A stretch of DNA of 42,559 nt from a virus (taxonomy: Duplodnaviria; Heunggongvirae; Uroviricota; Caudoviricetes), in IMG/VR virus record IMGVR_UViG_2872698443_000008; one strand, given 5' to 3'. Both the position numbers and the translations under genes were made by a program. Positions 1 through 37,164 of the stretch are shown one piece after another. Within the stretch, counting starts at the first letter, position 1; each line of letters starts with the position of its first letter. The notes beneath the pieces are model-generated. The model did not search any database. It saw only the letters and a program-made list of their open reading frames with translations, and was not told where the DNA came from.

Positions 1-2754
1 ATGAACTGGATTGGTTCTCGGTGGTGGAAATTCGACTTCCATAATCACACTCCGGCATCGGACGATTATGGAAAAGGCCCTAATCAGGCCCAGTATATGC
101 AGATCACTCATAAAGATTGGCTGCTCAACTACATGCGACAAGGCATCGATTGTGTCGCTGTCACGGACCATAATTCAGGCGCTTGGATTGATCCGCTCAA
201 GCAGGCACTCAAGGAACTGGCATCTGAGAGTCATGAAGATTATCGACCACTCTACTTATTCCCAGGTGTTGAGCTTACTGTTCAGGGGAATATCCATATT
301 CTGGCCATTTTCGGCGAAGACAAGACAACCTCTGATATCGACTCACTGCTTGGTGCGGTCAGGTATCGCGGCACCAAAGGAAAGAGCGACGGCTGCTCTG
401 AATGCTCAGCAGTTGAGGTGATCGACGAAATTGCTAGGTCAGGAGGACTTGCAATACCTGCTCATGTAGATCAGGCTAGCGGACTTTTTACGGTCTGTAC
501 GGGCAACACACTAGAGCAGGTGCTTGACAACAAATGTGTTTTTGCTATGGAGGTAACGGACCTTGCTAAAGCAAAACCGCAGCTCTATATTGGCAAGAAT
601 TTGAATTGGGCAGAGATTCTTGGAACCGATTCCCATCATCCGTCCGGTACCGGAAATCAACGCTACCCGGGTAGCCATTTCACTTGGGTAAAAATGTCGG
701 AGCCATCTTATGACGGATTACGGCTGGCGCTCGTTGATGGGGCTCTTTCACTGAAGCGGTCGGACAACTTCACTGGTGACCCAAATATCCATGGACAACT
801 TGCCATCGAAAGTATCGTGGTTGATGATGCGAAGTACTTAGGACGAGGGCAATCTTTAACTTGTCAACTGAACCCCTGGCTCAACACTATCATTGGTGGA
901 CGAGGCACTGGGAAATCGACTTCGTTGGAATTCCTGCGGATTGCTCTTAAACGAAAGGGAGAAATCCCCAAGAGCCTTGAAAAGGAATTTACCAAATACA
1001 GTCAAACTTCGAAAGACCGCCAAGATGAAGGGCTGTTAAAAGATTCCACGAAAATAACTGTAGGCTTTCGAAAAGACGGTGGCCGTTTCCGAATCACCTG
1101 GTCTAATACCGACGACATATACAGCATCGAGGAAGAGACCGCTCCCGGAGTCTGGTGTGATTCCGAGGGAGACATAGCACAACGATTTCCTGTCAGGATT
1201 TACAGCCAGAAACAGATATTCGAATTGGCAAAGCATCCCCAAGCACTCTTGCAGGTTGTCGATGATGCCCCGGAGGTCAATCATCGTGATTGGCAGCTTA
1301 AGTGGGATGAACTGGTTTCCAAATATCTCTCGCTTCGCGCCCAAGAGCGTGAAGTTCAGGCTGGGCTTCAGGAAGAATCGGTAACCAAAGGTCAGCTTGA
1401 AGACGTCAAACGCAAACTCGATGTTTTTGAAAAGGCGGGCCACGCGGATGTCCTTAAGGCTTACCAACTCAGACAGAACCAGAGTAAGGCTATGGACTCC
1501 TGGGTAACGACTTGGGAGGATTCCGCCGAACAGGTCCGAGATATTTCTGGAAGCCTACTGCCAGCAGAATTGGATTTACAATATTTCGACATTGGGAATG
1601 CGGATGACAAAGAACTCTTCGATACCATCAAGGACATCCGTGCGACGTTTGAGAAGCTTCAGACAGAGATGAACTCGATCGCGCAGCGGATTGATGATGT
1701 GAAGAACTCATGGAATCAAACTCGATCAGACTTGGGAATATCGAAAAGAATTACAGCGGCGAGCCATGAATACAACGCCCTCCTCGGTCAACTCAGCGCA
1801 GCAGACGCAGGTGATCCATCTGCATATGGTGTTCTGGTTAAGCAGCGACAAGATTTCGAAGATAAGCTCAAGGGATTCGACAAAAAGAGAGAAACTCTTG
1901 CGCAGCATCAGAAGAGCGCGGAAGAATACTTGGTCAAACTCCATGAGCATCGAGCATTGATAACCAAACTTCGTGAGGACTTTCTCAAGGATACTCTCGT
2001 CGGCAATTCATATGTACAGATCAATGTCATTCCGTTTGGAAACAAGATTACGGTTGAGGAAGAATTCCGTAACCTGATCGGCCGCAGTGGTGGCGGATTT
2101 GACCGCGACATTGGAGTTGTTGACGGGGATGAGGGCTTGCTGGCTTATTTAACGCAAGACCAATCCAATACTATGGATGATAAAATTGAGAAAATAAAAT
2201 CATCGCTACTTGCAATCCATGAAAACGATACTATGGCGGTGGAATCCTGCAAAGATCGACGTTTTGTATCCCTCATTCAGGGGCTAACTCCGGAACAGAT
2301 AGATCGAATTCAGTGCTGGTTTCCAGGCGATTCTCTGGATATCAGATATAGCCTCAAGAACGGCGAGAGTTTCAAACCCGTAGAGCAAGGATCTCCGGGG
2401 CAAAAAACGGCGGCTCTCCTTGCATTTATCCTTTCATATGGCAATGAGCCTCTTATACTTGATCAGCCTGAGGATGATCTTGATAACCACTTAATCTATG
2501 ATCTTATCGTGACGCAATTGCGTGAGATCAAACAAAAACGGCAGGTTTTAGTAGTCACGCACAACGCTAACATCGTCGTGAATGGTGACGCGGAAAACGT
2601 CATTGCCCTTGATATTCGGTCTGGTCAAACCAGAATTGTGGCGCAAGGGGGTCTTCAAGAACCTTCCATACGCGATGAGATATGCCGAGTGATGGAAGGT
2701 GGCAAAGAGGCCTTTACCCAAAGATATAAACGAATCAATGCAGCAATCAAATAG
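1..2754 (+). CDS. PHP-domain phosphoesterase fused to ABC/SMC-type ATPase with central coiled coil (917 aa); candidate single-gene defence protein
   Basis: Full-length ORF from position 1. N-terminal PHP motifs FDFHNHT, VTDHNS, PAHVD, GTDSHH. Walker A GGRGTGKST at nt 895-921. Long E/K/Q/L-rich region (aa ~400-700). C-terminal ABC signature-like SPGQKTAAL, Walker B LILDQPEDDLD (nt ~2461-2490), H-loop VVTHNANIV. Confidence 0.8.
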   Translation: MNWIGSRWWKFDFHNHTPASDDYGKGPNQAQYMQITHKDWLLNYMRQGIDCVAVTDHNSGAWIDPLKQALKELASESHEDYRPLYLFPGVELTVQGNIHILAIFGEDKTTSDIDSLLGAVRYRGTKGKSDGCSECSAVEVIDEIARSGGLAIPAHVDQASGLFTVCTGNTLEQVLDNKCVFAMEVTDLAKAKPQLYIGKNLNWAEILGTDSHHPSGTGNQRYPGSHFTWVKMSEPSYDGLRLALVDGALSLKRSDNFTGDPNIHGQLAIESIVVDDAKYLGRGQSLTCQLNPWLNTIIGGRGTGKSTSLEFLRIALKRKGEIPKSLEKEFTKYSQTSKDRQDEGLLKDSTKITVGFRKDGGRFRITWSNTDDIYSIEEETAPGVWCDSEGDIAQRFPVRIYSQKQIFELAKHPQALLQVVDDAPEVNHRDWQLKWDELVSKYLSLRAQEREVQAGLQEESVTKGQLEDVKRKLDVFEKAGHADVLKAYQLRQNQSKAMDSWVTTWEDSAEQVRDISGSLLPAELDLQYFDIGNADDKELFDTIKDIRATFEKLQTEMNSIAQRIDDVKNSWNQTRSDLGISKRITAASHEYNALLGQLSAADAGDPSAYGVLVKQRQDFEDKLKGFDKKRETLAQHQKSAEEYLVKLHEHRALITKLREDFLKDTLVGNSYVQINVIPFGNKITVEEEFRNLIGRSGGGFDRDIGVVDGDEGLLAYLTQDQSNTMDDKIEKIKSSLLAIHENDTMAVESCKDRRFVSLIQGLTPEQIDRIQCWFPGDSLDIRYSLKNGESFKPVEQGSPGQKTAALLAFILSYGNEPLILDQPEDDLDNHLIYDLIVTQLREIKQKRQVLVVTHNANIVVNGDAENVIALDIRSGQTRIVAQGGLQEPSIRDEICRVMEGGKEAFTQRYKRINAAIK

Positions 2755-2860
2755 AACGGAGTTGCACTTGAACGGCAATTGCGCTGAGCTCAATTGCCGC
2801 CAATGCTTGGTCGTTAACGTCTGCTCCTGGCACAGGGCTGCTGTTGCAGCCCTGACAACC

Positions 2861-3076
2861 TTAGACTTCAATCGATTCAGAGATCTCTAACGCATCATCG
2901 ACTTCAATGCCCAGATAACGGAATGTGCTTTCCAGTTTCTTATGACCCAACAGAAGTTGAATCACCCGAAGATTCTTGGTCAGCGGACAATAGGTGCAAC
3001 GCCATATTGAACCCTTAAGACTAAAGTGGACCGATATAGTAAGCGTTACACTGACCCGTTGCCAGCATCGAAATGC
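2861..3076 (-). pseudogene. Tyrosine recombinase C-terminal remnant (no start codon, ~70 codons open)
   Basis: Minus-strand translation reads ...TKNLRVIQLLLGHKKLESTFRYLGIEVDDALEISESIEV*, resembling the LLGH...Y box II region of integrases/Xer recombinases. Upstream frame closed by a stop at 3077-3079. Confidence 0.4.
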
Positions 3077-3344
3077 CTAAGCTACGAAAACTCTTTGACG
3101 GACATAATGTTCCTCATGTTTGCCACATGTCTCCGATTGAGCACAACTATAGTCTGCTGATGAGACTAATTATGGCACTGAGCAGACCTGCTCGCTAGGC
3201 GAGATCCGCTGTGAGCGAATTGCAGAGGTCTCGAATATGCTTGATAATAATGCTTGAAGATATAATTGGTATGAGCCTGAAAATTTATTTTTAAAGAATT
3301 ATTAAATACTGCCGATGTTAATAATTATACTAAAAAAAAGGAAC

Positions 3345-3851
3345 ATGGAATTTATGTTAAATTTAGACGAAATGTGCAGCGCATTAAGAAAACAATACTC
3401 TATAACGGCTGGTCAAGATGGTGAGAAATATGCTAGTAGATGGCTGGAAAAATCCAAGTGGAAATTTGAACATGTTGAGCAAGGAATAAATACTTTATCT
3501 GCAAACTTGAAATCATATGGGGGGAAACGCCCCGATTTCATTATTGACGCTGACGAATCCTCTTATATTCTTTTAGATGCGAAGTATCACTCAACAGATG
3601 GGTGTACCTCCTTTACACTTACTGATTGTGAAATAGGAAAGTATAGAGCACTTCAGCAATTCTTAAAAAATGTGTATAGTGATTGTACTTTCGAAGTAGT
3701 CTTTATGGTGTTTCCGAAAGAAAAAAATGGTGACGAATTTACATTTGTGAGTCTAGATGAGTTTGATAAAGGAGAGTGTACGACTCTAGCATCAAAAGAT
3801 GCAACGAAAATTAGTCTACTCTATCGAGATGACTTATGGTTTAAAAGTTGA
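3345..3851 (+). CDS. Small low-GC protein with PD-(D/E)xK nuclease-like motif (about 168 aa)
   Basis: ORF 3315-3851; ATG at 3345 follows AAGGA (ATG at 3354 is an alternative). Motif KRPDFIIDADESSYILLDAKYH (PD ... D-A-K). Markedly AT-rich relative to flanks. Confidence 0.6.
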   Translation: MEFMLNLDEMCSALRKQYSITAGQDGEKYASRWLEKSKWKFEHVEQGINTLSANLKSYGGKRPDFIIDADESSYILLDAKYHSTDGCTSFTLTDCEIGKYRALQQFLKNVYSDCTFEVVFMVFPKEKNGDEFTFVSLDEFDKGECTTLASKDATKISLLYRDDLWFKS

Positions 3852-4193
3852 TTAATAAAAAACAATTGGCTTTCACCATTTTTAATTACTTTTCCCAGCA
3901 TGCCGAAAATGTCTCATTTATTTGAATGATTGTATCTTTAATAGATATATCGCGACTATTCCTAAACTTATTTCTAGTTGTTAACAAAACTGTGTGCTAT
4001 GAATGTCTGCTGTTGGCACATAGCAGTTCTAGAGACAGTGGCGTAAAGTCATGGAGAATCGGTGGAAGGAGGTGCAAACCCTCTCATACAAAAATGCGTA
4101 AAATCAGTAACGGCTGGAAATCATTCAATACTCGCACTATCAAAAGTTCACCAGCCAACCGCGACACCTCCTGCATACGACATGTCTGCGGTT

Positions 4194-4748
4194 TTATATA
4201 ACCCTGGCTGGAAACCTCTTATACAAAGTTGACACACCAACATCATAGATAATAGCCACCTTCTGGCGAGGAACGCCTGATGCAATTAATCGCCCGGCCT
4301 GCGCCCATTGTTCTGGTGTAAGTTTGGGACGACGTCCACCAATTCGTCCCTGTGCGCGAGCAGCTTCCAGTCCAGCTTTTGTTCGTTCAACAATCAGTTC
4401 TCGTTCCATTTCAGCCAGGGCACCCATCACATGAAAGAAAAAACGCCCCATCGGTGTGCTGGTATCAATAGCATCCGTCAGGCTGCGAAAATTAACGCCA
4501 CGTTCGCGCAACTCCTCAACCAGAATGACCAGATGCCGCATACTACGTCCCAGCCGATCCAGCTTCCAGACAACCAGAGTGTCACCTGCCGATAATGTCC
4601 TGAGCAGTTTTTTCAGTCCCGGCCTTTCGGACTTTGTACCGCTTACCTTGTCTTCAAAAATCAGCTCGCATCCTGCACAGTTCAGCGCATTACGTTGTAG
4701 ATCTGTGTTCTGGTCATTTGTTGACACACGTACATAGCCAATAAGCAT
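4194..4748 (-). CDS. pin: Serine DNA invertase (Pin/Gin/Hin/Cin family)
   Basis: N-terminus MLIGYVRVSTNDQNTDLQ with catalytic Ser motif, C-terminal HTH; start taken at internal Met of ORF 4194-4784. Lies next to the invertible tail-fibre segment. Confidence 0.9.
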   Translation of the reverse strand: MLIGYVRVSTNDQNTDLQRNALNCAGCELIFEDKVSGTKSERPGLKKLLRTLSAGDTLVVWKLDRLGRSMRHLVILVEELRERGVNFRSLTDAIDTSTPMGRFFFHVMGALAEMERELIVERTKAGLEAARAQGRIGGRRPKLTPEQWAQAGRLIASGVPRQKVAIIYDVGVSTLYKRFPARVI

Positions 4749-4804
4749 GGTAGATCTCCCTGACAAAAGCAGGAATGATGCCATTTGCTCGTTATTTCTG
4801 CATT

Positions 4805-4828
4805 TTCATAAACGTTGGTTTGGGAGAA
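4805..4828. promoter_or_regulatory. Invertase crossover site (left boundary of invertible segment)
   Basis: ttcataaacgttggtttgggagaa; reverse complement TTCTCCCAAACCAACG shares the half-site plus AA core with the site at 7484-7509, in inverted orientation. Confidence 0.6.
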
Positions 4829-5164
4829 GCGGCAAAACGGAATGTGGGAACAGGGGAAAATCAGATACCAGATATGTCTGCATTTCCATCTGGCAAAAAC
4901 TGGTTTCAGTTACCAAGTGGTCATATTGTCCAAATGTTTTCGATGAATGTTTATGGGGCGGACACTAACGGAACTACAGGTAATTTCCCTATTGCATTTC
5001 CTTCAGGCGCACTGGCTGTTAGTGCCTTATGGTCAGATGGCACATTAACGGCTGCTCCGACCTTTAAACTTATGGGGTACACGACAACAAGGACATCAGT
5101 AACCTTAAAAGTATCAGCCGGAAATGGTTTGTATGGAACTATGATTATCGCAATAGGAAGATAA
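4829..5164 (+). CDS. Silent alternative tail-fibre C-terminal cassette (promoterless, no own start)
   Basis: Open frame 4775-5164 on the opposite strand to the expressed fibre, ending 1 nt before the alternative assembly gene; begins at the crossover site. Confidence 0.5.
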   Translation, partial: AAKRNVGTGENQIPDMSAFPSGKNWFQLPSGHIVQMFSMNVYGADTNGTTGNFPIAFPSGALAVSALWSDGTLTAAPTFKLMGYTTTRTSVTLKVSAGNGLYGTMIIAIGR

Positions 5165-5380
5165 TATGAATCAATATATTTATTCCCCTTCGGAAAATGC
5201 TTTTTATGCTGTTAATTTAAAAAACACTTATGAAGTAAATGGAACATGGCCTGCTGATGCATTAGATATTCCTGATGACATTTCTGTAAAATATATGGCG
5301 GAACCGCCACAAGGGAAAATCCGAGTTGCAGGGGAAAATGGTTTTCCCACATGGGTTGAAATACCGGTAATGACTCCAAC

Positions 5381-5884
5381 TTATTGATAGTGTTTTATGT
5401 TCAGATAATGCCCGATGACTTTGTCATGCAGCTCCACCGATTTTGAGAACGACAGCGACTTCCGTCCCAGCCGTGCCAGGTGCTGCCTCAGATTCAGGTT
5501 ATGCCGCTCAATTCGCTGCGTATATCGCTTGCTGATTACGTGCAGCTTTCCCTTCAGGCGGGATTCATACAGCGGCCAGCCATCCGTCATCCATATCACC
5601 ACGTCAAAGGGTGACAGCAGGCTCATAAGACGCCCCAGCGTCGCCATCGTGCGTTCACCGAATACGTGCGCAACAACCGTCTTCCGGAGCCTGTCATACG
5701 CGTAAAACAGCCAGCGCTGGCGCGATTTAGCCCCGACATAGCCCCACTGTTCGTCCATTTCCGCGCAGACGATGACGTCACTGCCCGGCTGTATGCGCGA
5801 GGTTACCGACTGCGGCCTGAGTTTTTTAAGTGACGTAAAATCGTGTTGAGGCCAACGCCCATAATGCGGGCAGTTGCCCGGCAT
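5381..5884 (-). CDS. insB: IS1 transposase InsB reading frame
   Basis: Overlaps insA 3' end in a different frame, as in IS1 (InsAB' by frameshift); sequence ...[41 protein letters not shown]... Confidence 0.9.
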
Positions 5885-6078
5885 CCAACGCCATTCATGG
5901 CCATATCAATGATTTTCTGGTGCGTACCGGGTTGAGAAGCGGTGTAAGTGAACTGCAGTTGCCATGTTTTACGGCAGTGAGAGCAGAGATAGCGCTGATG
6001 TCCGGCGGTGCTTTTGCCGTTACGCACCACCCCGTCAGTAGCTGAACAGGAGGGACAGCTGATAGAAACAGAAGCCAC
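5803..6078 (-). CDS. insA: IS1 InsA
   Basis: [43 protein letters not shown]... zinc-finger N-terminus typical of InsA. Confidence 0.9.
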
Positions 6079-6356
6079 TGGAGCACCTCAAAAACACCAT
6101 CATACACTAAATCAGTAAGTTGGCAGCATTACCGAAATACCTCCACCATCACATGAGGAACTTATTGAACAGGCCGAATCAGAGAGGCAATTATTGATTA
6201 ACCAGGCCAACGAATACATGAACAGTAAACAATGGCCCGGTAAAGCCGCTATTGGTCGTCTGAAAGGCGAGGAACTGGCACAATATAATTCGTGGCTGGA
6301 TTATCTGGACGCACTGGAACTGGTCGATACTTCCGGGGCGCCAGATATTGAATGGC

Positions 6357-6962
6357 CTACGCCTCCGGCAGTTCAGGCCAGATGACATCCGGCGCGGTGC
6401 TGGTATCTGTTGCCGTCACCGCGTCAATGTAATCCAGCACAGCGTTAAGGCGGGTTGTTTCTGCCTGCGTCAGTTTACGTCCGGCCTGTAATTTCAGCTG
6501 AATCAGACTGATGGAGGCCATTGCAGTATCAATCAGTGACTGGCGCTGTGCTTCTGCCGTGTCTACTGCGACGCTATGCTGTGCCTCAGTATCGGTCACC
6601 CATTTCTCACCATCCCATTTATCGTATGGTGTTAACGGGGCGATAGTTGTGGTATTTTCAGGGTAATCACCCGGAGCTGTGATTTCTTTTGACTCTCCCG
6701 TTTTGGTGCTATAGACGATTTCACCGCGATGGTCTGGCACATATTCCCATGAGTTAAAATTTGCAGAACGACAGATAGCATAACCCACCTTATATGTGCC
6801 AGGAGCATCTAAACAGGAATATGCGGGGATACCGACACCCACAGCAAGATATTCAATTGATGCAGAAATATACTCCCGTGTCTCACTGTCATAGTTATAA
6901 ACGGTAATCTCTCCTGCCTTTGTGGCAATAAATTTATTATTTAAGATGGCGTTATACATCAT
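6357..6962 (-). CDS. Tail-fibre assembly protein (active orientation)
   Basis: 201 aa, directly downstream of the tail-fibre gene with ATGA overlap; conserved C-terminal assembly-protein motif. Confidence 0.85.
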
Positions 6963-7786
6963 GCAGCCCTCACAATGTAATTAAATGAAATATTACGTGG
7001 GCGTGTCTCTGCTGCACCGACAATACTGGTGCTCAACCCCGTTGCCGTTCGTTTGTTATTTTTATTTCCTTCAATCAGACAGTTGTAATCATCATTACCA
7101 ATTAACGAATTGGTGGCATCAATACTGTCCGGGGACAAGGCATTAGTAGTGGAACTTAAAGTCAGCATCTCGTCTGAACTTGGAAGATTTTTTAATGGTG
7201 TTTCATTGCGTGAAATACCCGCGTAAAAAAAGGACTCATGCCTGTGAGCTTCAAAAGAGTCATCCTGAAGACTTAGCAAGGCTCGCCCCGCATCCACTCC
7301 ACGTCCATCATCCCAGCCACGAATAAATTCACCGCGTAAATCAGGCAATTTATTGGTCGGGTAAGCCTTTGCCAGTTCCGGGTATTCTTCAGCAGAAAAA
7401 GCCGCACCATTGCATTTCAGCCAGCCTGTTGGCGGAGTGGCTGAAGGCCACGGAACAGGCACCCCAACCGGTAATGCAGAGCCTTCTCCCAAACCAAGGT
7501 TTTCGAGAGCCGTTTTCACCGTGCCATCCGATTTGATATCGCCAAACGGATTCTTGCGGCTTAACAGCAGCGCACGAAGCGCGGTAAGCAACTGGTCGTG
7601 CCGCGCCTTCTCCAGGCTGGCACCGGATGCCTCCACCACGCTGCAGAGTTCTTCCTGCAACATATCAAAGTAGTCATCATCCAGATCGGTGGCAGGCGTG
7701 CCAGTCTGGGGGTTACCACGGGTAAAACCGTTCTTACCCGCGCCGAACTTATCCTTCTGCGCGGTTTTCGTGTCTATACGATGCAT
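6959..7786 (-). CDS. Tail-fibre protein (constant N-terminus outside, variable C-terminus inside the invertible segment)
   Basis: 275 aa; conserved fibre N-terminus [41 protein letters not shown]. Crossover site 7484-7509 lies inside the gene. Confidence 0.85.
7484..7509. promoter_or_regulatory. Invertase crossover site (right boundary, inside tail-fibre gene)
   Basis: ttctcccaaaccaaggttttcgagag, hix/gix-like with central AA. Confidence 0.6.
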
Positions 7787-7789
7787 GGA

Positions 7790-8374
7790 TTACTCCGGAT
7801 ATTTAAAAATTACGTAGGTATGCGACGGGCAGAGTTTGTTAAGCACACATTCGACAACGGTGTCGCCCCAGATACGCAGTGCGGAATCACAGGGATCGCC
7901 ACATGTCATCCAGGTGGTGTTGGTGGCGGCTGGCATGTTGATCTGCCAGTAATACCGCCATTCCGGCGCATTCACCGCGTCAGTACAGGCCGATGAGCAG
8001 GTGAACGTGCTTTTGTCGTATCGCGTGATGGTAGCATCTGGTCTGCCCAGGGCAGCAAGCTGTGCAAGATAAAAATCCTCGTTGATGCCACCCGACAGGT
8101 TAACCTTCGCATCCAGCCGTTGCTGGCGCTGGCGAAGGGTCTGTGTCCCTGTAGGAATACATTCATCCGGCAGGCCGCACAGACGCTCCCAGCGGTTTAT
8201 CAGTTCGGTGGTGGTGCGCGGATCCAGCTCCCGCATCAGGGCATCCGCACGCTGATGAACACGGGTTAATGACGGTGCCGTACCGGCAATCGCCGGATCG
8301 CTGGCTGACCACGCCGGACCGGGCGGCAGCAGTGCCGACAACAGACGGATGTAATCATCGTTTGTCACGTCCAT
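7790..8374 (-). CDS. Tail protein (Mu gp48-like)
   Basis: 194 aa; position between baseplate J-like gene and tail fibre; recognised as the family of e14 YmfQ-like tail proteins. Confidence 0.7.
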
Positions 8375-9423
8375 GAAATCGTCCCCAGAACCGCCAGTTC
8401 ATTTTTTGCAATGGAGATATTGTCCGCCGGTGCAAGCAATTGATGGCTGTATTCCCCGTTCGCACCGGAAATCGCCTCACTGATACGCGATACCTTCAGT
8501 TCTCCCTGCGGATAACCATCACGCAGCAGGAACGAACGCAACTCCGCGGTAATGGCAGCCCGTATTTCTGGTGTGTCCGGCGTCACGCGGATATGAAAAT
8601 CCACCGTATGCGCCGCCGGCCTGAACACATACAAATCAGAGCCTGCCACCGGGGCCAGTGGCCCGATATGTTGTCTTGCCGCCGTTTCCGTTGATTCTTC
8701 CGGAATGGGATTAATCAGGTCACTGCCGGCAATCATCACACCGACAGTCCCCGTTCCCATCCAGTGACGGTATGTCCATGCGCGGGTAATGCCGGGCACT
8801 TCTTTAGCCCAGACGACATAGTCCCCGTCAGCCCCGCCCTGCGGCGTCCAGTAATACCGCTCAATGACGCGGGCGCGCCACGTTTCCAGATCTTCAGTAT
8901 CGAATCCGCCAGTCAGGGTATCTGCCACACCGGAAGACGGCAGACCATTCACCGGCGTGACCAGGATTAATGCCGTACCGTCGTCAGCGTTACCGACCGC
9001 GCCTGCAGTTGAGCAGGCGATCGGCACGCGCAGGACTCCACCTGAGCTGGTTGCATCAGAAGTTGCCGTGTACTGAACCAGGTCATCGCGCTGAATAACA
9101 CTCCCGGCGGTCACCTTCAGGCCATCGCTGACACCTTCCCAGCGCATATACCCGCTGGCAGACGTGGCCCCCTTGCGCGGACACCGTTTCATCGCAGCAT
9201 GTCGCGCCAGCCAGGACTCATCGCACAGGTCAGGCAGCATGTTCATTGCCAGATAATCGATGTAACCGTAAACCGTATGCAGCGCCGCCGCATACACCTT
9301 TGCCCGCACGTCTTCATCCATGCGCCGGAGCGTGTCGCTGACGTCCAGCCTGGCGAATAAATCGTTACGGAGCATACTGATATTTTCTGCCAGCGTCGGG
9401 CGCTGAAATTCACTGTCCGCCAT
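8365..9423 (-). CDS. Baseplate J-like protein (Mu gp47-like)
   Basis: 352 aa; gene order and family resemblance within Mu-like baseplate module. Confidence 0.75.
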
Positions 9424-9838
9424 GCGTTATCGCACTCCACAGATCATCAAAAGAAATCATTACCGGTCCGTCACGACGCCAGAGAGTGATACTGTTACCC
9501 AGTTCATTAATCCCGGTGCGGCGGATATCCAGATCAATACGGGACACCACACCGTCATCAATCATCCATTGCAGGCATTCGCGGATATACCCCCTTACCG
9601 TCTGCACCAGCTGATTGGTCAGTTTGCCGCGCTGAAGCAGCCACAGCCGGGAGCCGTAACGGTCATTCTGTACCGCAGGCCAGGTATCCCCCCACCATCC
9701 CATCGGGACGTCGGCATTGTCATCAGGCTCCGCCCGCCGCCAGGTAAACAGGGAAATCACCACGGCGCGGGTCAGCGGATCCAGCGGTGCGCTGGCGCAG
9801 GTGCGTTTACCGTTCACCGTCAGCCACAGTTCCATCAT
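9410..9838 (-). CDS. Baseplate wedge protein (GPW/gp25-like, Mu gp46-like)
   Basis: 142 aa; position in the conserved baseplate order. Confidence 0.6.
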   Translation of the reverse strand: MMELWLTVNGKRTCASAPLDPLTRAVVISLFTWRRAEPDDNADVPMGWWGDTWPAVQNDRYGSRLWLLQRGKLTNQLVQTVRGYIRECLQWMIDDGVVSRIDLDIRRTGINELGNSITLWRRDGPVMISFDDLWSAITHGGQ

Positions 9839-10383
9839 GCCTCCATCGCTTTATCCGGTTTGTCGGTGTTACTGCCCTGACCGTTCTCTCTGTGACAATG
9901 GCCGTTATAGGCAAGCCGCATCGCTGACATGGTGGTGCCGCCGGAGTCGCACAGGTCTTTCACCTGTCCGGTCACTTCCAGGTCCATTTCAAAACGTGCT
10001 CTGGGCGCATTGCGAAACGTGATCGTTTTACCTGCACCGTCCACCACGATCCCCTCCCGGGTCAGCGTCACAGACTGCCCCTGATCGTCATAGACAGCCA
10101 CCTCACCCGTCTGCAGCCCTTTCAGGCGGTAGCGCCGGTCCGACACCGTAACAACCACCGCATGAGAACGGTCGCCATCCGGAAACAACACCACCGCTTC
10201 CGCACCGCTGTTTGCCCTTGCGGTAAAACCGTAGGGTTCAAGATGTTCAACCCCGGCTTTGGGTTCACCGGCAATCAGGGACACATCCACGGTCTGACAT
10301 TTCGTGGCGGCACTGATGCTTTTCACCACTGCCCGCCCAATCAGGCCGAGAAGTTGTCGCTGCATGGCTTCAATCGTCCTCAT
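9835..10383 (-). CDS. Baseplate assembly/central spike protein V-like (Mu gp45-like)
   Basis: 182 aa; position and composition. Confidence 0.65.
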   Translation of the reverse strand: MRTIEAMQRQLLGLIGRAVVKSISAATKCQTVDVSLIAGEPKAGVEHLEPYGFTARANSGAEAVVLFPDGDRSHAVVVTVSDRRYRLKGLQTGEVAVYDDQGQSVTLTREGIVVDGAGKTITFRNAPRARFEMDLEVTGQVKDLCDSGGTTMSAMRLAYNGHCHRENGQGSNTDKPDKAMEA

Positions 10384-11462
10384 CAGAACGGGTCCTCCTG
10401 TACTCTGGCTTTTTTCTTTTTCCGCGCGCCGGGGGCTTCAGGTTCAGGCAGATAAGCATCAGGCGGGCCGACACGGATTTCCGTCAGGGTGCCGTTCTGG
10501 TCCTGAGTAAACGTGACTTCCGAAACAAGCAGTTCGGTATTGTCAAAACCACAGACCGGATCAAAGACAATCACCCGCTGGTTGGGTTGCCACAGCGTAC
10601 CGTTACCCTGTCGCCAGCCCTGCACCACATAGGTGGTTTCATCCGTCCGCGCCGCCCGTTGCCGGGCTTCAAAGTCAGCACGCGCAATACAGCCTGCCCC
10701 CGTAGCCTGCCCTGTCTGCCTGATATACATCGGACGGTAACGGGCAATAAATGCGTCCTCTGTGCGGGCCCGCAGCGCGGTGGTGGTGGCCTCACCGAAA
10801 TCATCGTCGTTTCCGGCACGCTGCCCCGCCACCTGGTAAACAGAAAACCGCTCCCGGATACTCTTCTCCGTATCACAGGAAAGGATGTTTTCCCCAAGTA
10901 CCAGCGCGGTATGTGCCCGCGTTGAGCCAATACCGCCAATCACCAGCCTGCCGTGCGGGTCGTCGTAAGCCAGCGCCTGCTGCTGACCGAGTATTTTGTT
11001 GATTACCTCAATCACCGTTTCACCGTGATCAGGCTGAACATCAGGAATAACACCCGACGGCGCACCGCTGTTCACCACCTCAATACCGAAAGGCGCAGCA
11101 AGCGCCTGCGCAATCTGCACCAGCGAGCGTCCGTTAAACTGTGTCGGTTCGGCTGCACAGTCAATCAGGTCAGCCGTCAGACTACGTCCGGCAATACCGG
11201 TGCTGACCGAACGGGCATCGTACCGAACGGGCGTCGCCTCCACCCAGCCGGTGATCACCAGCTCATCACCAATCAGCACTTCCACTTTTGAACCGTTTTT
11301 AATGCGCGGCTGAAGCGTGGTGATACCCTCATCTCCCGGCCACTGGCGAGTGATCTCCACACTGAAATCCCGCGCCAGCCGTTCAATACCGGCACCGATG
11401 CGCACCGATGTCCAGCCATTCCACTCCCGGCCATTTACCCGTAGCGTGACGTTATCGTTCAT
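10383..11462 (-). CDS. Tail/baseplate hub protein (Mu P-like, P2 gpD-like)
   Basis: 359 aa, N-terminus MNDNVTLRVNGREWNGWTSVRIG...; gene order. Confidence 0.7.
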   Translation of the reverse strand: MNDNVTLRVNGREWNGWTSVRIGAGIERLARDFSVEITRQWPGDEGITTLQPRIKNGSKVEVLIGDELVITGWVEATPVRYDARSVSTGIAGRSLTADLIDCAAEPTQFNGRSLVQIAQALAAPFGIEVVNSGAPSGVIPDVQPDHGETVIEVINKILGQQQALAYDDPHGRLVIGGIGSTRAHTALVLGENILSCDTEKSIRERFSVYQVAGQRAGNDDDFGEATTTALRARTEDAFIARYRPMYIRQTGQATGAGCIARADFEARQRAARTDETTYVVQGWRQGNGTLWQPNQRVIVFDPVCGFDNTELLVSEVTFTQDQNGTLTEIRVGPPDAYLPEPEAPGARKKKKARVQEDPF

Positions 11463-12829
11463 TGCACTGGCACCTTCAGAGGGATCACCGGCACAAAGCC
11501 GGGATGCGTAATGGCATTACGCCGGATAATGTCCGCGTCACGCGCCGCGTTATCAAACCAGGTCGCCGCCAGCACCAGCGCGGGTAAAACCTCATCCGGC
11601 GTGCGCTGAATGATCCGTGCAGACTGTTCAAGGCGCGTGTTGATATCCGCATTCAGATCTGCTTTCACCCGGCGCAGCGCCAGAAACAGCGCATCACTGG
11701 TTGTACGGGACAACTCCTTATCAATTGCCGTATTCAGTGTGTCGCGAATGTCAGTCAGTTCTTCCCACGTCGGCAGGTCAACTGTGTTTTTCACCGCCGG
11801 TGCATTGTTCAGTGCCGGATGCGTGACGGAAGGCCAGCCAGTGCTCTGCGCAGGTGTTGTTGCCTGCCCCACTGCGGCATTCTGCATCACCGCGGAAGTT
11901 GTTGGCGTAGGCAATCGGGTGACGGCATACGCCGCTTCGCTGATTGCGGTCGTACGAAGGGTGCTGGCAACCACGTTACGCTGCTGCGTAGCCGTGGCGG
12001 TGGTTTTACTGTCCGTTTTCCAGACGCCGCGCGGTTGCAGATCGCTGCCGAGGCTGACACCGGAAAGCGTTTTGATCATGGTGACCAGGTCGCTGGCGTT
12101 ACCATAAAGGCGTTTCCCGGTACGCCACATTTTCTGCACCTGCTCAACGAAATTTTTGCCTGACGATGGCGGCGGCAGAAGTACCGAGATATCCCCCTGC
12201 AACAGCCTGGCGGCATCCGATACGGCAGAATCCACCACTTTCATCGCATCAGAAACATACCCAAGCATTGTGCTGGCATTACCGACGACGTCGTTCTGCA
12301 CAAAATCTGCCACGCCATCGATACTGAAACTACTGAAACTGTCACTGATGCAGTCATCCAGTGCAGAACAGGATGACATCAGCGTCTGCGCCGTCGCCGC
12401 ACCTGATGTGGGGTAAGAGAGTTCTCCCGCTTCGACAAACTTCAGGTCAAAGCGGACAATACGCCCTTCACTCTTCGATGTGCTGACCCGAACCTCTCCG
12501 TCAACACAGACTTTCAGCTCACCGTAAGTCGGATGGACAAGCGTGCCGGGACCGGGTTTATTCAGCGCGTCAATCAGGCGATCGCGCTGGTCAAAGCAGT
12601 CATCTCCCACCACATAAGCCGTGATGGACGGGCGGAAAGTGATTTTCCCCAGGTCTTCGGTATAGGGTTTGTCGCGGTTCGGGTATTCGTGCGTTTCCAC
12701 ACGACGACCGGTTCCCGCACTTTCTTCTTCAACCTTAAACGGCACACCGCGAAATGACGCGTCCTGAAGTCTGTCTTTCCACGTCATATAAACTCCGTAC
12801 ATAAAAAATCCCACCGGAGTGGGACTCAT
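11459..12829 (-). CDS. DNA circularisation protein N-like (Mu gp43-like)
   Basis: 456 aa, N-terminus ...MTWKDRLQDASFRGVPFKVEEE...; sits between tape measure and baseplate hub. Confidence 0.75.
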   Translation of the reverse strand: MSPTPVGFFMYGVYMTWKDRLQDASFRGVPFKVEEESAGTGRRVETHEYPNRDKPYTEDLGKITFRPSITAYVVGDDCFDQRDRLIDALNKPGPGTLVHPTYGELKVCVDGEVRVSTSKSEGRIVRFDLKFVEAGELSYPTSGAATAQTLMSSCSALDDCISDSFSSFSIDGVADFVQNDVVGNASTMLGYVSDAMKVVDSAVSDAARLLQGDISVLLPPPSSGKNFVEQVQKMWRTGKRLYGNASDLVTMIKTLSGVSLGSDLQPRGVWKTDSKTTATATQQRNVVASTLRTTAISEAAYAVTRLPTPTTSAVMQNAAVGQATTPAQSTGWPSVTHPALNNAPAVKNTVDLPTWEELTDIRDTLNTAIDKELSRTTSDALFLALRRVKADLNADINTRLEQSARIIQRTPDEVLPALVLAATWFDNAARDADIIRRNAITHPGFVPVIPLKVPVQ

Positions 12830-12847: not shown

Positions 12848-14681
12848 TTACCTGCCAAAGCGCGTATAGCCAACATCATGGCTGACATCAAAACCGCTGG
12901 ATCGCGTTTCCATAACCCGCATACCCGGAGGCGAATTCACAAAAGAGACCTTGATCTCACCATCAACTTTTGGCGCAGAAGCTTTGTTAATCATGAAGGG
13001 ATTCAGGCCTGTGGCACCGGAGGCGTTGTTTGACTGAGCCGGATCTACCGCCGGATAAGGTGTGTATCCCCGCGCCGGTATTCCCGTCCCATAAGCATCA
13101 TAAGCACCCGCGCCCCACTGCGCAGAGTTAATGGCATCGACCGTGTCACCGGAACTGTCGGTAAACCACTCAATAATTGGCTTCAGCTTGTCCCACATAT
13201 CCTGAAACCACTTAACAACCGGTCCCCAGTTATTGATCACCATCCCCAGCGGCGACCAGGCAAAAACCTTCTTAAGAAGTTCCCAGCCAGTCTCAAAATA
13301 AGGACCAATGGTTTCCCAGAGTTTCTTAAAATAAGGTCCGACAACATCCCAGTTAGTGATAATTAATCCCGCAGCGAGGGCTATCGCCGTCGCAATCATG
13401 CCAATCGGCGTCATCGACATGATCCTGCTGACAATACTGATGGCACCGCCAACGCCCATCAATCCCAGTTTCAGAATCGCAAGACCGGCAGCAAGCCCGA
13501 CGACGCCGCGAATAACCCGGGGATTTTCATCCGCAAACTTCGTGAATTTTTCCCCTAACTCCCCAGCCATTGCGTGATATTTTTAGCGTCACCAGAAAAT
13601 GCGCCGCCAATAGCCGCAAGGCCGTTAGTTGCGGTCCCCGTCATTGCCTCCCACAGGTTGGACAGCGTACCAAGCTGAGCCTGAACACGTTTATTCAGGC
13701 TGGCCTGTTTATTCATCTTCTGCTGGATCTGATCGTAGCCATCCTTTCCTTTATCGATCAGCGCATTGACCACCTGAAGGGTTTCGGCATCATCACCAAA
13801 TATTGCCTTAAGTACACCGGTTCGCTTAACGTCGGTCAGTTTTCGCAGCTTTGCCAGTTGCCTGAACATGTTATCAAGACCGCCAAAACTCCCTTTGCCA
13901 TCAGTAAAATCGAGCTGTACCCCGAGTTTCTGGCGGGCCATGATTTTATTGACGTCCCTGATTTTCTTAACGCTTAATCCGGACTGGATAACTTTTCGCA
14001 GGGCATTACCTGCCGACTCCCCGTTCATCCCCATCTGATCCATCATGACACTGATGGGGCAAGACTCTGTGCAGCCTGAAGACCGTCCTTATTCACCATT
14101 TTCAGAACAGAACTGGTTTTAGTGAAGAAGGACAACATGTTGGTATCATCAACGCCCAGATAAAACGCCTTCTGGATAGTGTCGAACAGCCCCATCATGT
14201 CTTCTGACGCCGTTCCGGTAGCATCCTGCATCTTTGCAGCAAACTCAGCAGCCGCTTCCGGTGTTTTTTTCAGTTGTACCGCAAGATAAGCTGTCGCTTT
14301 ACCCACACCACCAAGAATGTTTTCTGCCGGGATCCCCTGACGCACCAGCATCTGCATCATGTTCTGGAAATCAGCCGTTGTACCGGGTAGCTGGTTACCC
14401 AGGCCAATAGCCAGTTTATTGATGTCCTGAAAGCTCTTTCCAACCTCGCCGTTCGCATCCATCATGGCGACTTTCAGCCCGGTGGCGGCGTTTTCCTGAT
14501 CGGCATAAGATTTCAGGGAAAGCGTCAGACCCGCTGCCAGTCCGCCACCAAGCGCCAGCCCACCCTGTGACGCTTCTTCCGCCTGGCGTTTAAATCCCCG
14601 GATTTTCTTTTGCATTTTCGACAGCGCGGGAGAAAGCCTGTCGACACCGGTGATCAACGCCTTAAGCTCAAATTCAGCCAT
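12848..14681 (-). pseudogene. Tail tape measure region split into three consecutive overlapping ORFs (212+163+240 aa)
   Basis: ORFs 14043-14681, 13555-14046, 12848-13570 overlap by 4 and 16 nt. Tape-measure-like composition (Ala/Gly-rich, C-terminal hydrophobic stretch). Either frameshifted or genuinely split. Confidence 0.55.
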
Positions 14682-15092
14682 GTGTGCGTTTCTCCTGCTC
14701 TATCCTGTTTGCCTGACTGACCAGCAAGGGAATTTCACTGATCGGCATATTCAGCAATTCGAAGGGATTAATGCGCCAGTAACTGGCGCAGTCAAAGAAG
14801 CGATCAGTGAGGTATTCAGCCGTCAGGCCTGGAGGAAAAAACCGGCCACAAGCCACGCCGCTGCATTCAGGTCTGCCGGAGACATCTGGTCGACAGAGCT
14901 TTGCGGCACTTTCGCCAGCCGCACGATGTATTTCGATACCACATGCGCCAGAAGTCTGACGGACTCATCCTGATTCATCTGGTAGGGATATCCCAGCTCG
15001 CGGACATCTTTCCCGGTGGGCTCATCAAACTCCAGTACGGAGAGTGTCTCGCCATGAGCGGTAATCGGTTTCTTTAACTCAAGCTCTTTCAT
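14674..15092 (-). CDS. Tail assembly chaperone pair (two overlapping frames, possible programmed frameshift)
   Basis: ORFs 14823-15092 (89 aa) and 14674-14856 (60 aa) overlap directly upstream of the tape measure, as for G/GT-type chaperones. Confidence 0.55.
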
Positions 15093-15447
15093 TACTGGTA
15101 ATCCCCTTCTTCACCGTGGAACTCAAGATCGACCGTGCCTTCTTCGGCATTATGGTTCGCTTCGCCGTGCAGCCAGGCAGACGACAGTACATAGACCTGA
15201 CCGTTTGCCAGCTCGGCAGTGATGGTCATCTCATCAGACGAGGTGATTTTGCTCACCGGAAAATTCTTCGGCACCTTGAAGGTCCCTTTGACATAAGGCG
15301 CACGGTGAGTTTCCTTGCGGTCCACTGAACCGTCCAGGCCGATGATGTCATCATTGACCGTCCTGTTCATGGCACCTCAATGCCGCCGGTCAGCGATAGC
15401 TGCTGACCGTCAATTTTGAAATAACAGGTTCCCCCGATACGGGCCAT
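15092..15447 (-). pseudogene. Tail tube protein with a frame break after about 25 codons
   Basis: ATG at 15447 gives MARIGGTCYFKIDGQQLSLTGGIEVP then TGA; the rest of the tube (NRTVNDDIIGLDG...) continues in another frame as ORF 15092-15370. Confidence 0.6.
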
Positions 15448-16940
15448 TATGCAGACTCCTCTGAATACTGAAGACGGAACTGGTTAACCACGGCAAAGAC
15501 ACGCAACTGGTTAACATAGTCAGGCGGGAACAGCGTGTTCAGGCGGTTCGGATCGCTGGCATCACGCTCCACAACCAGGTACTGCTTAAACAGTTCGTAG
15601 TTTTCCACGATCCCCCGCACGCTCAAGCTGACGGTAGGTTGCCAGCAGTTCCCCTTTGATCACCGCCGGTGTGACAATCGCCTGACCGGGACCAAAGCGG
15701 GTACCGTCGCTGGCAAGCTTGTGACGCCCGTACTTACTGGTAATGACGGATTTCAGTTTGCGCAGCACATACGCGCTGGTATGCAGCGTCTCGCTGTCGA
15801 GGTAGCTGTTATCCGCAACACCGTAAGCGTTTTTTCCTGTACGTGGTGACATCACGCTGAATGCGCAGCACCCCGCTTTCGACATACGCCGTTGCCACGC
15901 CATGAGACAGCAGGGTCTGTTGTTCGGTCATCGTGAACCGTTTCCCCTTCGGCGCAGGCAGCATACCCACCAGCTCACCGGTCTGCGTGGGACGTGCCGG
16001 ATCGTTGCGAATAAACACCGCTGCGCGGGCGGTACGGCTTGCCGCCAGCTCGTCGGCAGGCGTCTGGGTCTCTTTTTCGTATCCCGCCAGGGTAATGTGC
16101 TGCTGGTTAAACTGGTCACCTGCGTTCACCAGTTCTGACAGCGTGCCGATCTTTGCCGTATACACATGACCATACAGCTGACGCGCATAGCTCCAGCGAC
16201 CGCTGGTATCGTTCATCTCTGTCACCAGCGTGTTAACGGAGGCCGTGTCGTTGAACGGCAGGCCAATATAATCAAACGGCTCATCCGCCATTGCAGCCAC
16301 CGCGCCGGTGAGAACCGGAGCGCCCGTTCCGGCGCTCCCCGTCGCCACAGCAATCTGTACGCCGCTGGCAGCACTTCGCCCCCACCAAAGCCGTAGTAAT
16401 TGAGGCTGACAGGAATTTCATTCCCGCAAAGCCCTTATGACGCGCGGTCAGCGTGACCACGCCTGCCGAAGATGAGGCCGTAAACGCAGGGCCGGAACGG
16501 CATTAATGGCATCTTTGATACTGCTGGCAATCGTCGTGACGTTATCGCGTTGGTTCACCGGTGCCTGCACGCGGGTACGTCCCACATAAACATTCACCGT
16601 GCCGGTTTCGTTGCCGCCCCGGTCACCGTCAGCGTAACCGTTGCCGCCGCGCCCGTGGATTCAGGAACGGCAATTACATACAGTTCACCAAACGGGTCGG
16701 TCTGGCGATAAGCCTCGACCATACGCGCCAGCTGACTTCCCGCACCACAAATCTGGCGTGCATAGTCTGCGATGGCATCAGCACCAGACTGTTGGCAACA
16801 ATCTCTGCACCGTTATTGGCATGACCAATCAGCAGCGATGCTCCGCTGTCCTGTGCAGTATTCGCCGCCGAGTTATCCATTTCCGCATAAAAAATCGGAA
16901 CCAGCGTATTCGACGGAATGGTGTTAAAGCTTATCGTCAT
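15447..16940 (-). pseudogene. Tail sheath gene fragmented by several frameshifts
   Basis: N-terminus MTISFNTIPSNTLVPIFYAEMDNS at 16940. Further sheath-like pieces in ORFs 15809-16348 and 15586-15903. C-terminal frame ...IVENYELFKQYLVVERDASDPNRL... reached only after a shift at a poly-G run; stop overlaps the tube ATG. Confidence 0.6.
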
Positions 16941-17830
16941 CGGTATTCACCTTTTTATTCACGCGCCGGATATCACCGCTGCTTCACGGCGCAGCCAGTA
17001 GTTGTTCTCATCAACATTTCGCCCCTCGGCGGCAAAAGGTCGCCGCGGGCAGGGTCAGGAACTGACCGCCTTTAACAGGTTTCACAAACATGAAGATTCT
17101 CAGGAAGGAAGGGTTATTTCGGTGTGATGTTCGATATCGCCGTCAGGCCGTTACCGGATCGAGATAATCAACATCAATCGCCAGCGTTCGCAGTTCATCA
17201 GACTGTTCAGGTCATCCTGCTGGCGGGTATCGTCTTCGGTCAGCTCGCTGATGACCGAAAAATCGAACTGATAAATCAGCTCATGACGATTCAGATCCAG
17301 CAGCGTGCCGCCGTCATAAGTAATCGGGTTACCGCACGCTTCCGGGTTCCAGCCCAGCATGGCCTTAAAGAGCATCTGCGGACATCGTCCACCACATCAT
17401 ACGAGCAAACTGACCGCGCTCATCACGCCCGTTACTCAGTATGACAACCACGGAGAAGCCCTCTTTCAGCTCCTGCCAGTAGTCGGTCTGGCTTTTGTTT
17501 TCTCCCCGGAGAATCATCACCCGTGTCACAACCATATGCCGCCGGGAGTTTCAGCTTTCCGACCTCCGGCAGATTTTTGAACTGGGCCGCGCCTGCAACC
17601 CGGTTTTCAAAATACGGACAACGGCACGCAGGCAGTGCAGCAATAACAGGCGTCAGTTTCATCTGTGTCGTCGCTCCGGCTTCAGTGATTTACGCAATTC
17701 CCGCGCCCAATAGCCGTCCAGCTGCGGTTCTTTTCAAGCGTTTCCACCATGAAGTTATTACGTGGAGCCAGTCGCCAGCCGCTGCCACCGGATGCACCAC
17801 GATGATGGCTGCGACGACGCTTTGCCCCTC
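16941..17830 (-). pseudogene. Tail completion / virion protein gene(s), fragmented
   Basis: Only short ORFs (17432-17662, 17151-17375) of coding character between the HK97 gp10-like gene and the sheath; no intact gene fills the interval. Confidence 0.35.
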
Positions 17831-17833
17831 GCC

Positions 17834-36128: not shown

Positions 36129-36159
36129 CGTTCTGTGGTTAAAAATTGAAAGTGTTCTG

Positions 36160-36360: not shown

Positions 36361-36363
36361 ACA

Positions 36364-36435: not shown

Positions 36436-36450
36436 GGTTTTAATTTCGTT

Positions 36451-37125: not shown

Positions 37126-37139
37126 TCAATGTTTATGAA

Positions 37140-37160: not shown

Positions 37161-37164
37161 ATAC

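Follow-up and report, generated by a model that had tools for sequence, protein, structure and literature searches.

The P segment and its invertase PinE, carried by the defective Escherichia coli K-12 prophage e14, were reportedly described by Plasterk and van de Putte in 1985 and by Mehta et al. in 2004. In K-12 (b1153-b1158), ymfQ is followed by the constant head of a tail-fibre gene, a fibre cassette, a tfa gene, a second and convergent tfa gene, a second cassette and finally pin. The G segment of phage Mu (Sv-U, Sv'-U') is inverted by Gin, a serine invertase encoded next to it; one of its sites falls within the fibre gene where the constant part meets the variable part, and a dedicated Tfa gene comes after each variable tip in the two convergent arms. 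Inversion at the K-12 e14 sites has been documented by experiment (PMC4272514; PMC12529663), with about 30% inverted in wild-type e14 cultures (PMC12529663).

Here, we analyzed a 42,559-nucleotide stretch of viral DNA (the window). Its host element is a full-length e14-like prophage of roughly 37 kb, lambdoid but with a Mu-like contractile tail, located at the tRNA-Thr gene thrW and carrying head, contractile tail, lysis, Q, repressor and integrase genes. We found that it very probably harbors a P-segment/Pin DNA-inversion switch of the e14 family, by which such an E. coli prophage alternates between two tail-fibre tips, and in which an IS1 element breaks the chaperone gene of the unexpressed fibre tip and would make the flipped state a dead end. 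Both the type of system and the routine IS1 insertion are familiar and unsurprising; the locus has little importance beyond annotation and does not bear on any long-standing open question. Nevertheless, the e14 P-segment switch, known mostly from the defective K-12 remnant, is thereby seen in full-length thrW prophages as well, whose fibre-tip alleles differ and which occur naturally in both orientations.

Anatomy of the switch and its relation to e14 and Mu

The features of the locus are as follows.

4194-4748, minus strand: pin, serine DNA invertase, 184 aa, with a resolvase N-terminal catalytic domain and a C-terminal HTH_7 domain
4778-5164, plus strand: unfused fibre C-terminal cassette with a gp53-like C domain, a 128/129-aa ORF starting in the pin-proximal leader (MPFARYFCIFINVGLGE...)
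4803-4828, no strand: pin-proximal 26-bp crossover site (pixL-type), TTTTCATAAACG TT GGTTTGGGAGAA, core dinucleotide 4815-4816
5166-5365, plus strand: 5' part of the interrupted assembly gene, codons 1-67, variable fibre-binding domain
5366-6133, minus strand: complete IS1, 768 bp, with insA (6078-5803), insB (5884-5381) and an A6C frameshift motif
6142-6385, plus strand: 3' part of the assembly gene split by IS1, with codons 68-147 for the conserved helical C-terminal Tfa domain
6357-6962, minus strand: tfaE-type tail-fibre assembly gene of the expressed arm, 200/201 aa
6959-7483, minus strand: expressed fibre C-terminal cassette, a phage tail collar domain followed by a short-tail-fibre-like tip
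7484-7509, no strand: distal 26-bp crossover site (pixR-type), TTCTCCCAAACC AA GGTTTTCGAGAG, core 7496-7497
7510-7786, minus strand: tail-fibre gene, constant N-terminal portion of about 92-95 aa, outside the invertible segment

The two 26-bp crossover sites are inverted relative to each other and share 21 of their 26 positions, including the core AA; the reverse complement of the pin-proximal site reads TTCTCCCAAACC AA CGTTTATGAAAA. Their inner half-sites are identical, the palindromes of the half-sites match at 8-9 of 12 positions, and both sites overlap a 20-nt inverted repeat (4810-4829 and 7483-7502) that is 95% complementary. The 42.5-kb window contains a 19-nt core pattern at these two places and nowhere else, where 0.02 occurrences were expected by chance. 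The distal site sits within the fibre gene, where it codes for ...ENLGLGE, at the boundary between constant and variable parts, as an e14-type P segment requires. Both sites are identical to those of K-12 e14, the one at 4803-4828 to the pin-proximal site of the P segment and the one at 7484-7509 to the site within stfP. The sequence-only reading had recognized this pair of inverted sites, although it let the left one start at 4805, 2 bp too far in. The sites share 17-18 of 26 positions with Mu gix; the core dinucleotide is TC in Mu gix and AA in the window. Only these two sites are present in the window, which rules out a multi-site shufflon of the Min/p15B type.

The invertase had been expected next door, and an intact pin indeed adjoins the segment, lying just outside it with its start 54 bp from the left crossover site. 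The 184-aa product matches PF00239 over residues 3-135 (5.9e-52) and PF02796 over residues 138-181 (1.5e-13), and its catalytic serine lies within the motif GYVRVSTNDQ, which is conserved with Gin and PinE. It is identical to K-12 PinE at 174 of 184 positions (94.6%) and to Mu Gin at 142 of 193 (74%). The DNA at 1471-4829, which contains pin, is 100% identical to that of FORC_081, where the RefSeq protein is WP_015364430.1. Din-family systems have a Fis-dependent recombinational enhancer in cis, within the 5' part of the invertase gene. Comparing pin with gin and K-12 pinE in a simple scan for Fis-like sites (G-N13-C) revealed no clear, correctly spaced pair in the pin of the window. Over its first 210 nt, pin has just 5 differences from K-12 pinE, and whatever recombinational enhancer e14 has is therefore probably kept in the window.

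Between the sites lie two convergent pairs of a cassette and an assembly gene, which give in-frame fibre fusions in both orientations. The proposed bracketing of opposing fibre cassettes and assembly genes was borne out by the Pfam domains, with Collar and Gp53-like_C in the tips and Caudo_TAP in both assembly genes. Last in the late tail operon, behind the Mu gp48-like ymfQ (7790-8374), comes the constant head (7510-7786), which is nearly identical to that of K-12 e14. At present it is fused to the collar-type cassette (Pfam Collar, 1.6e-15), forming a 275-aa fibre that is 70% identical to the K-12 constant-plus-E fusion and diverges from it distally. The assembly gene of this arm (Pfam Caudo_TAP, 9.2e-32) aligns over its full length with K-12 TfaE, is annotated as WP_027661783.1 in relatives, and overlaps the other tfa gene tail to tail by 29 bp. 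Inversion would instead join 4815-5164 to the constant head, giving a predicted 212-aa fibre (Pfam Gp53-like_C, 1.9e-08).

Together, the identity of the sites, the 94.6% identity to PinE and a gene order equal to that of K-12 place the locus among Pin-type (Din-family) tail-fibre switches of the e14 P-region type, in good agreement with the sequence-only reading. K-12 e14 differs from it in several respects. There, the element is a defective remnant at icd and its cargo beyond pin is mcrA, whereas the window holds a full-length element at thrW with a Ppl/TrlF defence gene adjoining the switch beyond pin. Different alleles are found for the gp53-like cassette and for the N-terminal half of its Tfa, the collar-type tip differs distally, and one tfa gene of the window carries the IS1. 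The segment, 1,827 bp from core to core in K-12, would measure 1,905 bp in the window without IS1, which lengthens it to 2,681 bp. Mu is related through its baseplate genes, for which the window has Mu-like counterparts including homologues of gp44-48. However, Mu is a transposable phage, while the phage in the window is otherwise lambdoid with a tyrosine integrase, and the Mu S fibre is 504 aa long compared to 212 or 275 aa here.

Natural inversion and an IS1 insertion in one assembly gene

In FORC_081 and S163-2, the internal segment of this same prophage is reversed. Their flanks are 100% (FORC_081) and 99.96-99.97% (S163-2) identical to the window, and the breakpoints map to 4810-4829 and 7483-7502. 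Since these near-identical prophages are reversed with breakpoints inside the 20-bp repeat, the lineage, as distinct from the window's own strain, does invert its segment. Furthermore, the predicted 212-aa fusion junction is found at 100% identity in both genomes, where the fusion gene (639 nt) is annotated as WP_027661781.1. The prophage of TUM9754 has the orientation of the window. Both arrangements of this gp53-like cassette occur among complete E. coli genomes: 23 have it next to pin and 7 have it joined to the head.

Insertions of IS1 are common in E. coli and Shigella. An IS1 measures 768 bp, has terminal inverted repeats of roughly 23 bp and duplicates 8-9 bp of its target, 8 bp being an accepted length. 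In the window, the 8-bp direct repeat GAAATACC borders the element on both sides (5358-5365 and 6134-6141), and the terminal inverted repeats of the element (5365-5388 and 6111-6134, 24 nt) are 83% complementary. The insA and insB frames, both on the minus strand, are unbroken, the NCBIfam transpos_IS1 model being covered over 1-81 and 75-199. The complete IS1 with its 8-bp duplication had thus been identified correctly from the letters, except that it starts at 5366 and not at 5367. It matches thousands of IS1A/IS1B copies in E. coli, with a median of 11 places per genome having any, and is 97.5-99.1% identical to the copies among the matches listed; the window holds a single copy. An assembly artefact, as might be suspected from a stretch of poor quality elsewhere in the window, was rejected: the element is exactly 768 bp long, its 8-bp duplication is perfect, and the flanks rejoin precisely onto the relatives.

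As had been proposed, the assembly gene split by IS1 belongs to the arm not fused to the constant head. The break follows codon 67, so that codons 1-67 and 68-147 lie on either side of the element; the reading frame of the 5' piece runs on into IS1 as far as a stop at 5387, for a 73-aa product that is not on record, and the 3' piece is cut off from any start codon. Joining 5166-5365 to 6142-6385, that is, removing IS1 and one copy of the repeat, restored a single uninterrupted reading frame for a 147-aa Caudo_TAP protein (PF02413, 1.4e-33). The reconstituted gene aligns without gaps to its IS1-free counterpart, WP_073279077.1, in three relatives (FORC_081, S163-2 and TUM9754). In an alignment with K-12 TfaP and TfaE and with Mu U and U', the C-terminal half was conserved and the N-terminal half variable, and the insertion point fell at the invariant P67, on the boundary between the two regions. 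This fits the modular Tfa model, in which a variable N-terminal fibre-binding domain precedes a conserved C-terminal domain (PMC9608196).

The same insertion was absent from 5,426 complete E. coli genomes searched with a 901-nt junction query, which matched only unrelated IS1 copies; the two best-extending matches lay in the pdeF-yfgG interval, downstream of ppk-ppx, and in the zwf-hexR interval. Similarly, exact IS1 junction patterns occurred neither in species-representative genomes nor in metagenome contigs. As in other IS-inactivated prophage morons and tail genes, a complete IS1 with its target duplication interrupts a structural-accessory gene of the phage. In contrast to those cases, the element lies inside an invertible segment, and its effect thus depends on orientation.

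Expected consequences of the insertion for the two orientations

The last gene of the late tail operon, on the minus strand, provides a constant fibre head ending in a 26-bp crossover site. Pin would pair this site with its inverted copy 2.68 kb away, presumably depending on the help of Fis and an enhancer as Hin and Gin do. Cleavage at the AA core followed by strand rotation would then flip everything between the sites. In the present orientation, the head is continued by the collar-type tip and then by that tip's own chaperone, so that a complete fibre/chaperone pair is expressed. In the flipped orientation, the head would be followed by the gp53-like tip and by a chaperone gene broken by IS1 after codon 67, its variable fibre-binding domain parted from its conserved C-terminal domain; relative to the operon, the chaperone gene of the collar-type arm would be antisense. 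Flipped cells or virions would be expected to make the fibre tip without assembling it properly, leaving the phage in effect with one productive host-range state and wasting part of its progeny.

The sequence-only reading had considered the switch to be probably locked or unproductive. For a locked switch we found no support, the sites being identical to the functional e14 sites and pin being undamaged, with 100% DNA identity to relatives of both orientations. Invertible segments of comparable size exist, the Mu G segment measuring about 3 kb and the P1 C segment about 4.2 kb, and the 2,681 bp found here lie within that range. With sites and invertase undamaged and a length of this order, DNA inversion of the IS1-bearing segment should still occur, presumably also in the window's strain.

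The flipped orientation is expected to be unproductive, because tail fibres of such type generally require their cognate Tfa (PMC9608196) and the gp53-like tip would be served by a chaperone lacking the conserved C-terminal domain. The same expectation includes that this particular tip needs its chaperone. A Tfa supplied in trans by a second prophage of the cell might make up for the loss; E. coli genomes have sequence like our 2.9-kb pin-to-fibre query at a median of 2 places each. The IS1 allele is a natural allele with an orientation-dependent effect, in which one state would be productive and the other crippled, and it could be used to gauge the cost of bet-hedging by inversion or the need of gp53-like tips for their cognate Tfa.

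Alternative readings and the state of the prophage

A different meaning is suggested by a 2025 study of e14, in which the pin-proximal cassette was reported to be expressed and an anti-phage role protecting the host was claimed for it (PMC12529663). Inversion of the P segment puts the gp53-like cassette behind the pin-proximal leader, and the chimera, K-12 StfE2, reportedly keeps T2 and other phages from adsorbing; over-produced TfaP sensitised the cells (PMC12529663). The term "silent", which the sequence-only reading had used for this arm, may therefore not strictly hold. By extension, the switch of the window could have been domesticated for host defence, with ORF 4778-5164 made as a free receptor-masking protein like StfE2 and the IS1 in tfa neutral or even favoured as it penalises the phage-productive alternative. 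We consider this improbable. The window does have the same architecture, the same leader (MPFA.YF.IFINVGLGE) and an intact 128-aa ORF, and the Ppl/TrlF defence gene adjoins the switch. However, its cassette is another allele, with 37% identity to StfE2 overall and less beyond the leader, and the function is thus not transferable; moreover, the published StfE2 effect leaned largely on plasmid over-expression. Upstream of ORF 4778-5164 no promoter-like site stood out above chance, and the AGGA motif lies only 0-3 nt from ATG codons, a poor spacing. The underlying consensus scan for promoters and terminators at 4100-8000 gave 6 promoter-like sites against 5.8 expected, which is uninformative on the expression of this ORF either way. 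Finally, an insertion unique to the window among 5,426 genomes shows no sign of selection.

In its specific form, this reading would have the lysogen make the 128-aa leader plus gp53-like ORF to mask receptors, while IS1 would remove a costly or sensitising tfa and leave the prophage with an alternative orientation that is a dead end. Built by analogy with StfE2, this scenario seems very unlikely to us. If true, it would amount to a step from a phage host-range switch to a host-owned, recombinase-controlled defence beside the Ppl/TrlF gene.

Escherichia phage vB_EcoM-689R6, whose Pin is 98.3% identical, was set aside as evidence for a viable phage of this family: its genome is partial, contains the host genes icd, mnmA and hflD, and reads like a prophage region. 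An observation that the sequence-only reading had overlooked concerns the tail genes of the window, where 28 frameshifting single-base indels at 13561-17908 split the tape-measure, tube, sheath and tail-terminator genes, all intact in TUM9754 and FORC_081. If these indels were real, no tails would be made and the distinction between productive and unproductive orientations would be moot. Compared to TUM9754, the 28 indels are accompanied by only 3 substitutions within about 4.4 kb, the rest of the 36-kb alignment being otherwise identical; such a ratio is typical of a low-quality stretch of assembly and not of evolutionary decay.

It is accordingly hard to credit that the prophage is already dead and the switch a decaying relic, with IS1 one of many lesions and neither orientation having a phenotype: even though the split tail genes would suggest as much and the defective e14 of K-12 still inverts (PMC4272514), all other prophage genes match intact relatives, and Pin, both crossover sites and the expressed fibre/chaperone pair are undamaged.

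Segment architecture and the IS1 insertion

On the minus strand, the late tail operon passes through ymfQ (7790-8374; Mu gp48-like) and on into a fibre gene of 275 aa (7786-6959), whose N-terminal 92 to 95 residues, the constant head, lie outside the invertible segment. A 20-nt inverted repeat, 95% complementary (4810-4829 and 7483-7502), was lengthened to the 26 bp typical of Hin/Gin-type sites to define both crossover sites. These match each other at 21 of 26 positions, with identical inner half-sites and AA core, and the 19-nt core pattern (up to three mismatches) occurs at these two places only in the 42.5-kb window, where shuffles predict 0.02. The distal site encodes ...ENLGLGE, the end of the constant head. 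When inversion was simulated at the AA cores, the head and the gp53-like cassette joined in frame as a 212-aa protein.

Features of the segment and its surroundings
1-2754, plus: PHP and AAA ATPase protein (917 aa), an anti-phage gene; prophage cargo beyond pin
3345-3851, plus: orphan protein (168 aa) between the Ppl-like gene and pin; WP_015364431.1 in relatives
4748-4194, minus: Pin invertase (184 aa), resolvase and HTH_7 domains; start 54 bp outside the left site
4803-4828: left (pin-proximal) crossover site; reverse complement TTCTCCCAAACC-AA-CGTTTATGAAAA
4815-5164: gp53-like C-terminal cassette, converging on the collar-type arm
5166-6385: second Caudo_TAP (tail-fibre assembly, tfa) gene, converging arm, interrupted by IS1
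5366-6133: IS1, exactly 768 bp, with terminal inverted repeats
6962-6357, minus: Caudo_TAP assembly gene (200/201 aa), downstream of the collar-type fibre
7786-6959, minus: fibre gene with the collar-type tip, a phage tail collar domain in its present C-terminal part
7484-7509: distal crossover site; TTCTCCCAAACC-AA-GGTTTTCGAGAG
41116-41191: thrW tRNA-Thr (CGT), adjoining the integrase gene (39938-41101) and proA

Direct reading, the ORF list and the repeat search thus confirmed the sequence-only reading of inverted sites bracketing opposing fibre cassettes, with a split assembly gene. IS1, present as a single copy in the window, lies between two direct copies of the 8-bp sequence GAAATACC (5358-5365 and 6134-6141), and its intact insA and insB frames together span the NCBIfam IS1 transposase model. 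Both the element and the duplication had been recognized, with the start placed one base late, at 5367. The same insertion was found in none of the complete E. coli genomes, representative genomes or metagenome contigs searched, and the truncated Tfa product had no database record.

The two convergent tfa genes overlap at their 3' ends (6357-6385). An 18-nt inverted repeat (6295-6312 and 6421-6438, 83% complementary) arises because both share the conserved coding motif WLDY(L/I)DA.

Natural inversion in IS1-free relatives

Relatives were searched for with the segment from which IS1 and one repeat copy had been deleted. E. coli TUM9754 matched this query over its full length (99.5%); where the window has the interrupted gene, TUM9754 encodes an intact "tail fiber assembly protein" of 147 aa (WP_073279077.1). 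The junction expected after inversion, at which the constant head meets the gp53-like cassette, was found at 100% identity in two further genomes, FORC_081 and S163-2. Both are annotated with the same prophage, the segment lying opposite to that of the window, and the protein accessions are the same for Pin, both Tfa and nearly all listed neighbours; in FORC_081, YmfQ and one hypothetical protein differ. Direct alignment placed the window flanks (1471-4829 and 7483-12000) on one strand of these genomes at 99.96-100% and the segment (4810-5365 and 6134-7502) on the opposite strand. Flank and segment alignments overlap exactly within the 20-bp repeat, and the gap at IS1 closes on the duplicated 8 bp. 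The lineage is thereby shown to invert at these sites in nature. Excision of IS1 restores the ancestral tfa gene, so that the proposed split of one reading frame stood both in IS1-free relatives and in the IS1-deleted frame. Among complete genomes, the gp53-like cassette is pin-proximal in 23 and head-fused in 7.

In TUM9754, the unfused gp53-like cassette, annotated as a pseudogene in RefSeq, carries small indels at the equivalent of 4976-5080, including T-runs lengthened by 5 and 3. These reflect either an assembly error or independent decay of an unexpressed arm.

The system exemplifies a classical, well-understood member of the Din family, the P segment of the defective K-12 prophage e14; the IS1 insertion in it is routine. 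Gene order equals e14 b1153-b1158, both crossover sites are identical to those of e14, and K-12 PinE shares 174 of 184 residues with the window Pin. Mu is more distant (Gin, 142/193 identical; gix, 17-18 of 26 positions). That the e14 segment inverts is documented by sequencing and PCR (PMC4272514) and by qPCR (PMC12529663). Unlike e14, the window element is a prophage of full length that sits at thrW, adjoining proA, and has genes for head, contractile tail, lysis, Q, repressor and integrase. It carries other alleles of the gp53-like cassette and of the N-terminal half of the corresponding Tfa, the distal part of its collar-type tip is replaced, and beyond pin it has a Ppl/TrlF-type gene as cargo where e14 has mcrA.

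Function of the switch after IS1 insertion

The sequence-only reading held the switch to be probably locked or unproductive. Locking found no support: judged from the window's sequence, the recombination machinery appears undamaged. The stretches that hold Pin and the sites are identical to those of relatives in both orientations, save one mismatch between the repeats. The 5' part of pin, which would carry the enhancer, departs from K-12 pinE at only 5 of 210 nt; a motif scan of the window pin did not locate the Fis enhancer. The segment length, 2,681 bp, is within the range known from Mu G and P1 C.

That one orientation is unproductive can reasonably be inferred. When the reconstituted Tfa is aligned with TfaP/TfaE of K-12 and U/U' of Mu, the N-terminal half is variable and the C-terminal half conserved, and IS1 lies at this boundary, after the invariant P67. 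The 73-aa truncated product keeps the variable domain and loses the conserved one. In the modular Tfa model, the former binds the fibre tip and the helical C-domain drives trimerization and assembly (PMC9608196). Since the other tfa gene (6962-6357) would be antisense to the operon after inversion, the flipped state would make a gp53-like tip that lacks a functional chaperone.

We also considered whether the pin-proximal arm acts in defence. Kirigo et al. 2025 (PMC12529663) report for K-12 that "StfE2", the pin-proximal leader joined to a gp53-like cassette, blocks adsorption of T2, and its positional equivalent here, 4778-5164 (plus), is an intact 128-aa ORF starting in the same conserved leader (MPFARYFCIFINVGLGE). 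Three points speak against carrying this function over to the window: the tip allele is different and distantly related (37% identity overall, shared leader included), no promoter-like site stands out in a consensus scan, and the IS1 allele is a singleton.

Tail genes, cargo and immunity region

Compared with TUM9754, single-base indels number 28 in the window and substitutions only 3, all clustered in 13561-17908. The indels fragment the genes for tape measure (12848-14681), tail tube, sheath and terminator. TUM9754 and FORC_081 align without gaps over 28.7 kb including this region. The indel-to-substitution ratio points to a poorly assembled stretch. Were the indels real, the prophage would be tail-defective and build no tails, leaving a switch without virion phenotype.

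The 1-2754 product matched PADLOC Ppl (2.3e-157) and the NCBIfam TrlF family (651 bits, above cutoff); its Ppl_antiphage score (631 bits) is below the cutoff of 1000. The 168-aa orphan had no match in Pfam, PADLOC or NCBIfam, and by eye its stretch DFIIDADESSYILLDAKYH resembles a PD-(D/E)XK nuclease motif. In TUM9754, a 64-bp copy of the thrW 3' region lies just past the window's left end, about 430 bp upstream of its start, so that the element bounded by att sites takes in the Ppl-like cargo and is a little larger than the window. The immunity region (36140-37208; repressor/cro, ymfK/ymfT-like) matches TUM9754 and does not align to the FORC_081 prophage, which is otherwise 99.8% identical; the immunity module is a mosaic replacement.
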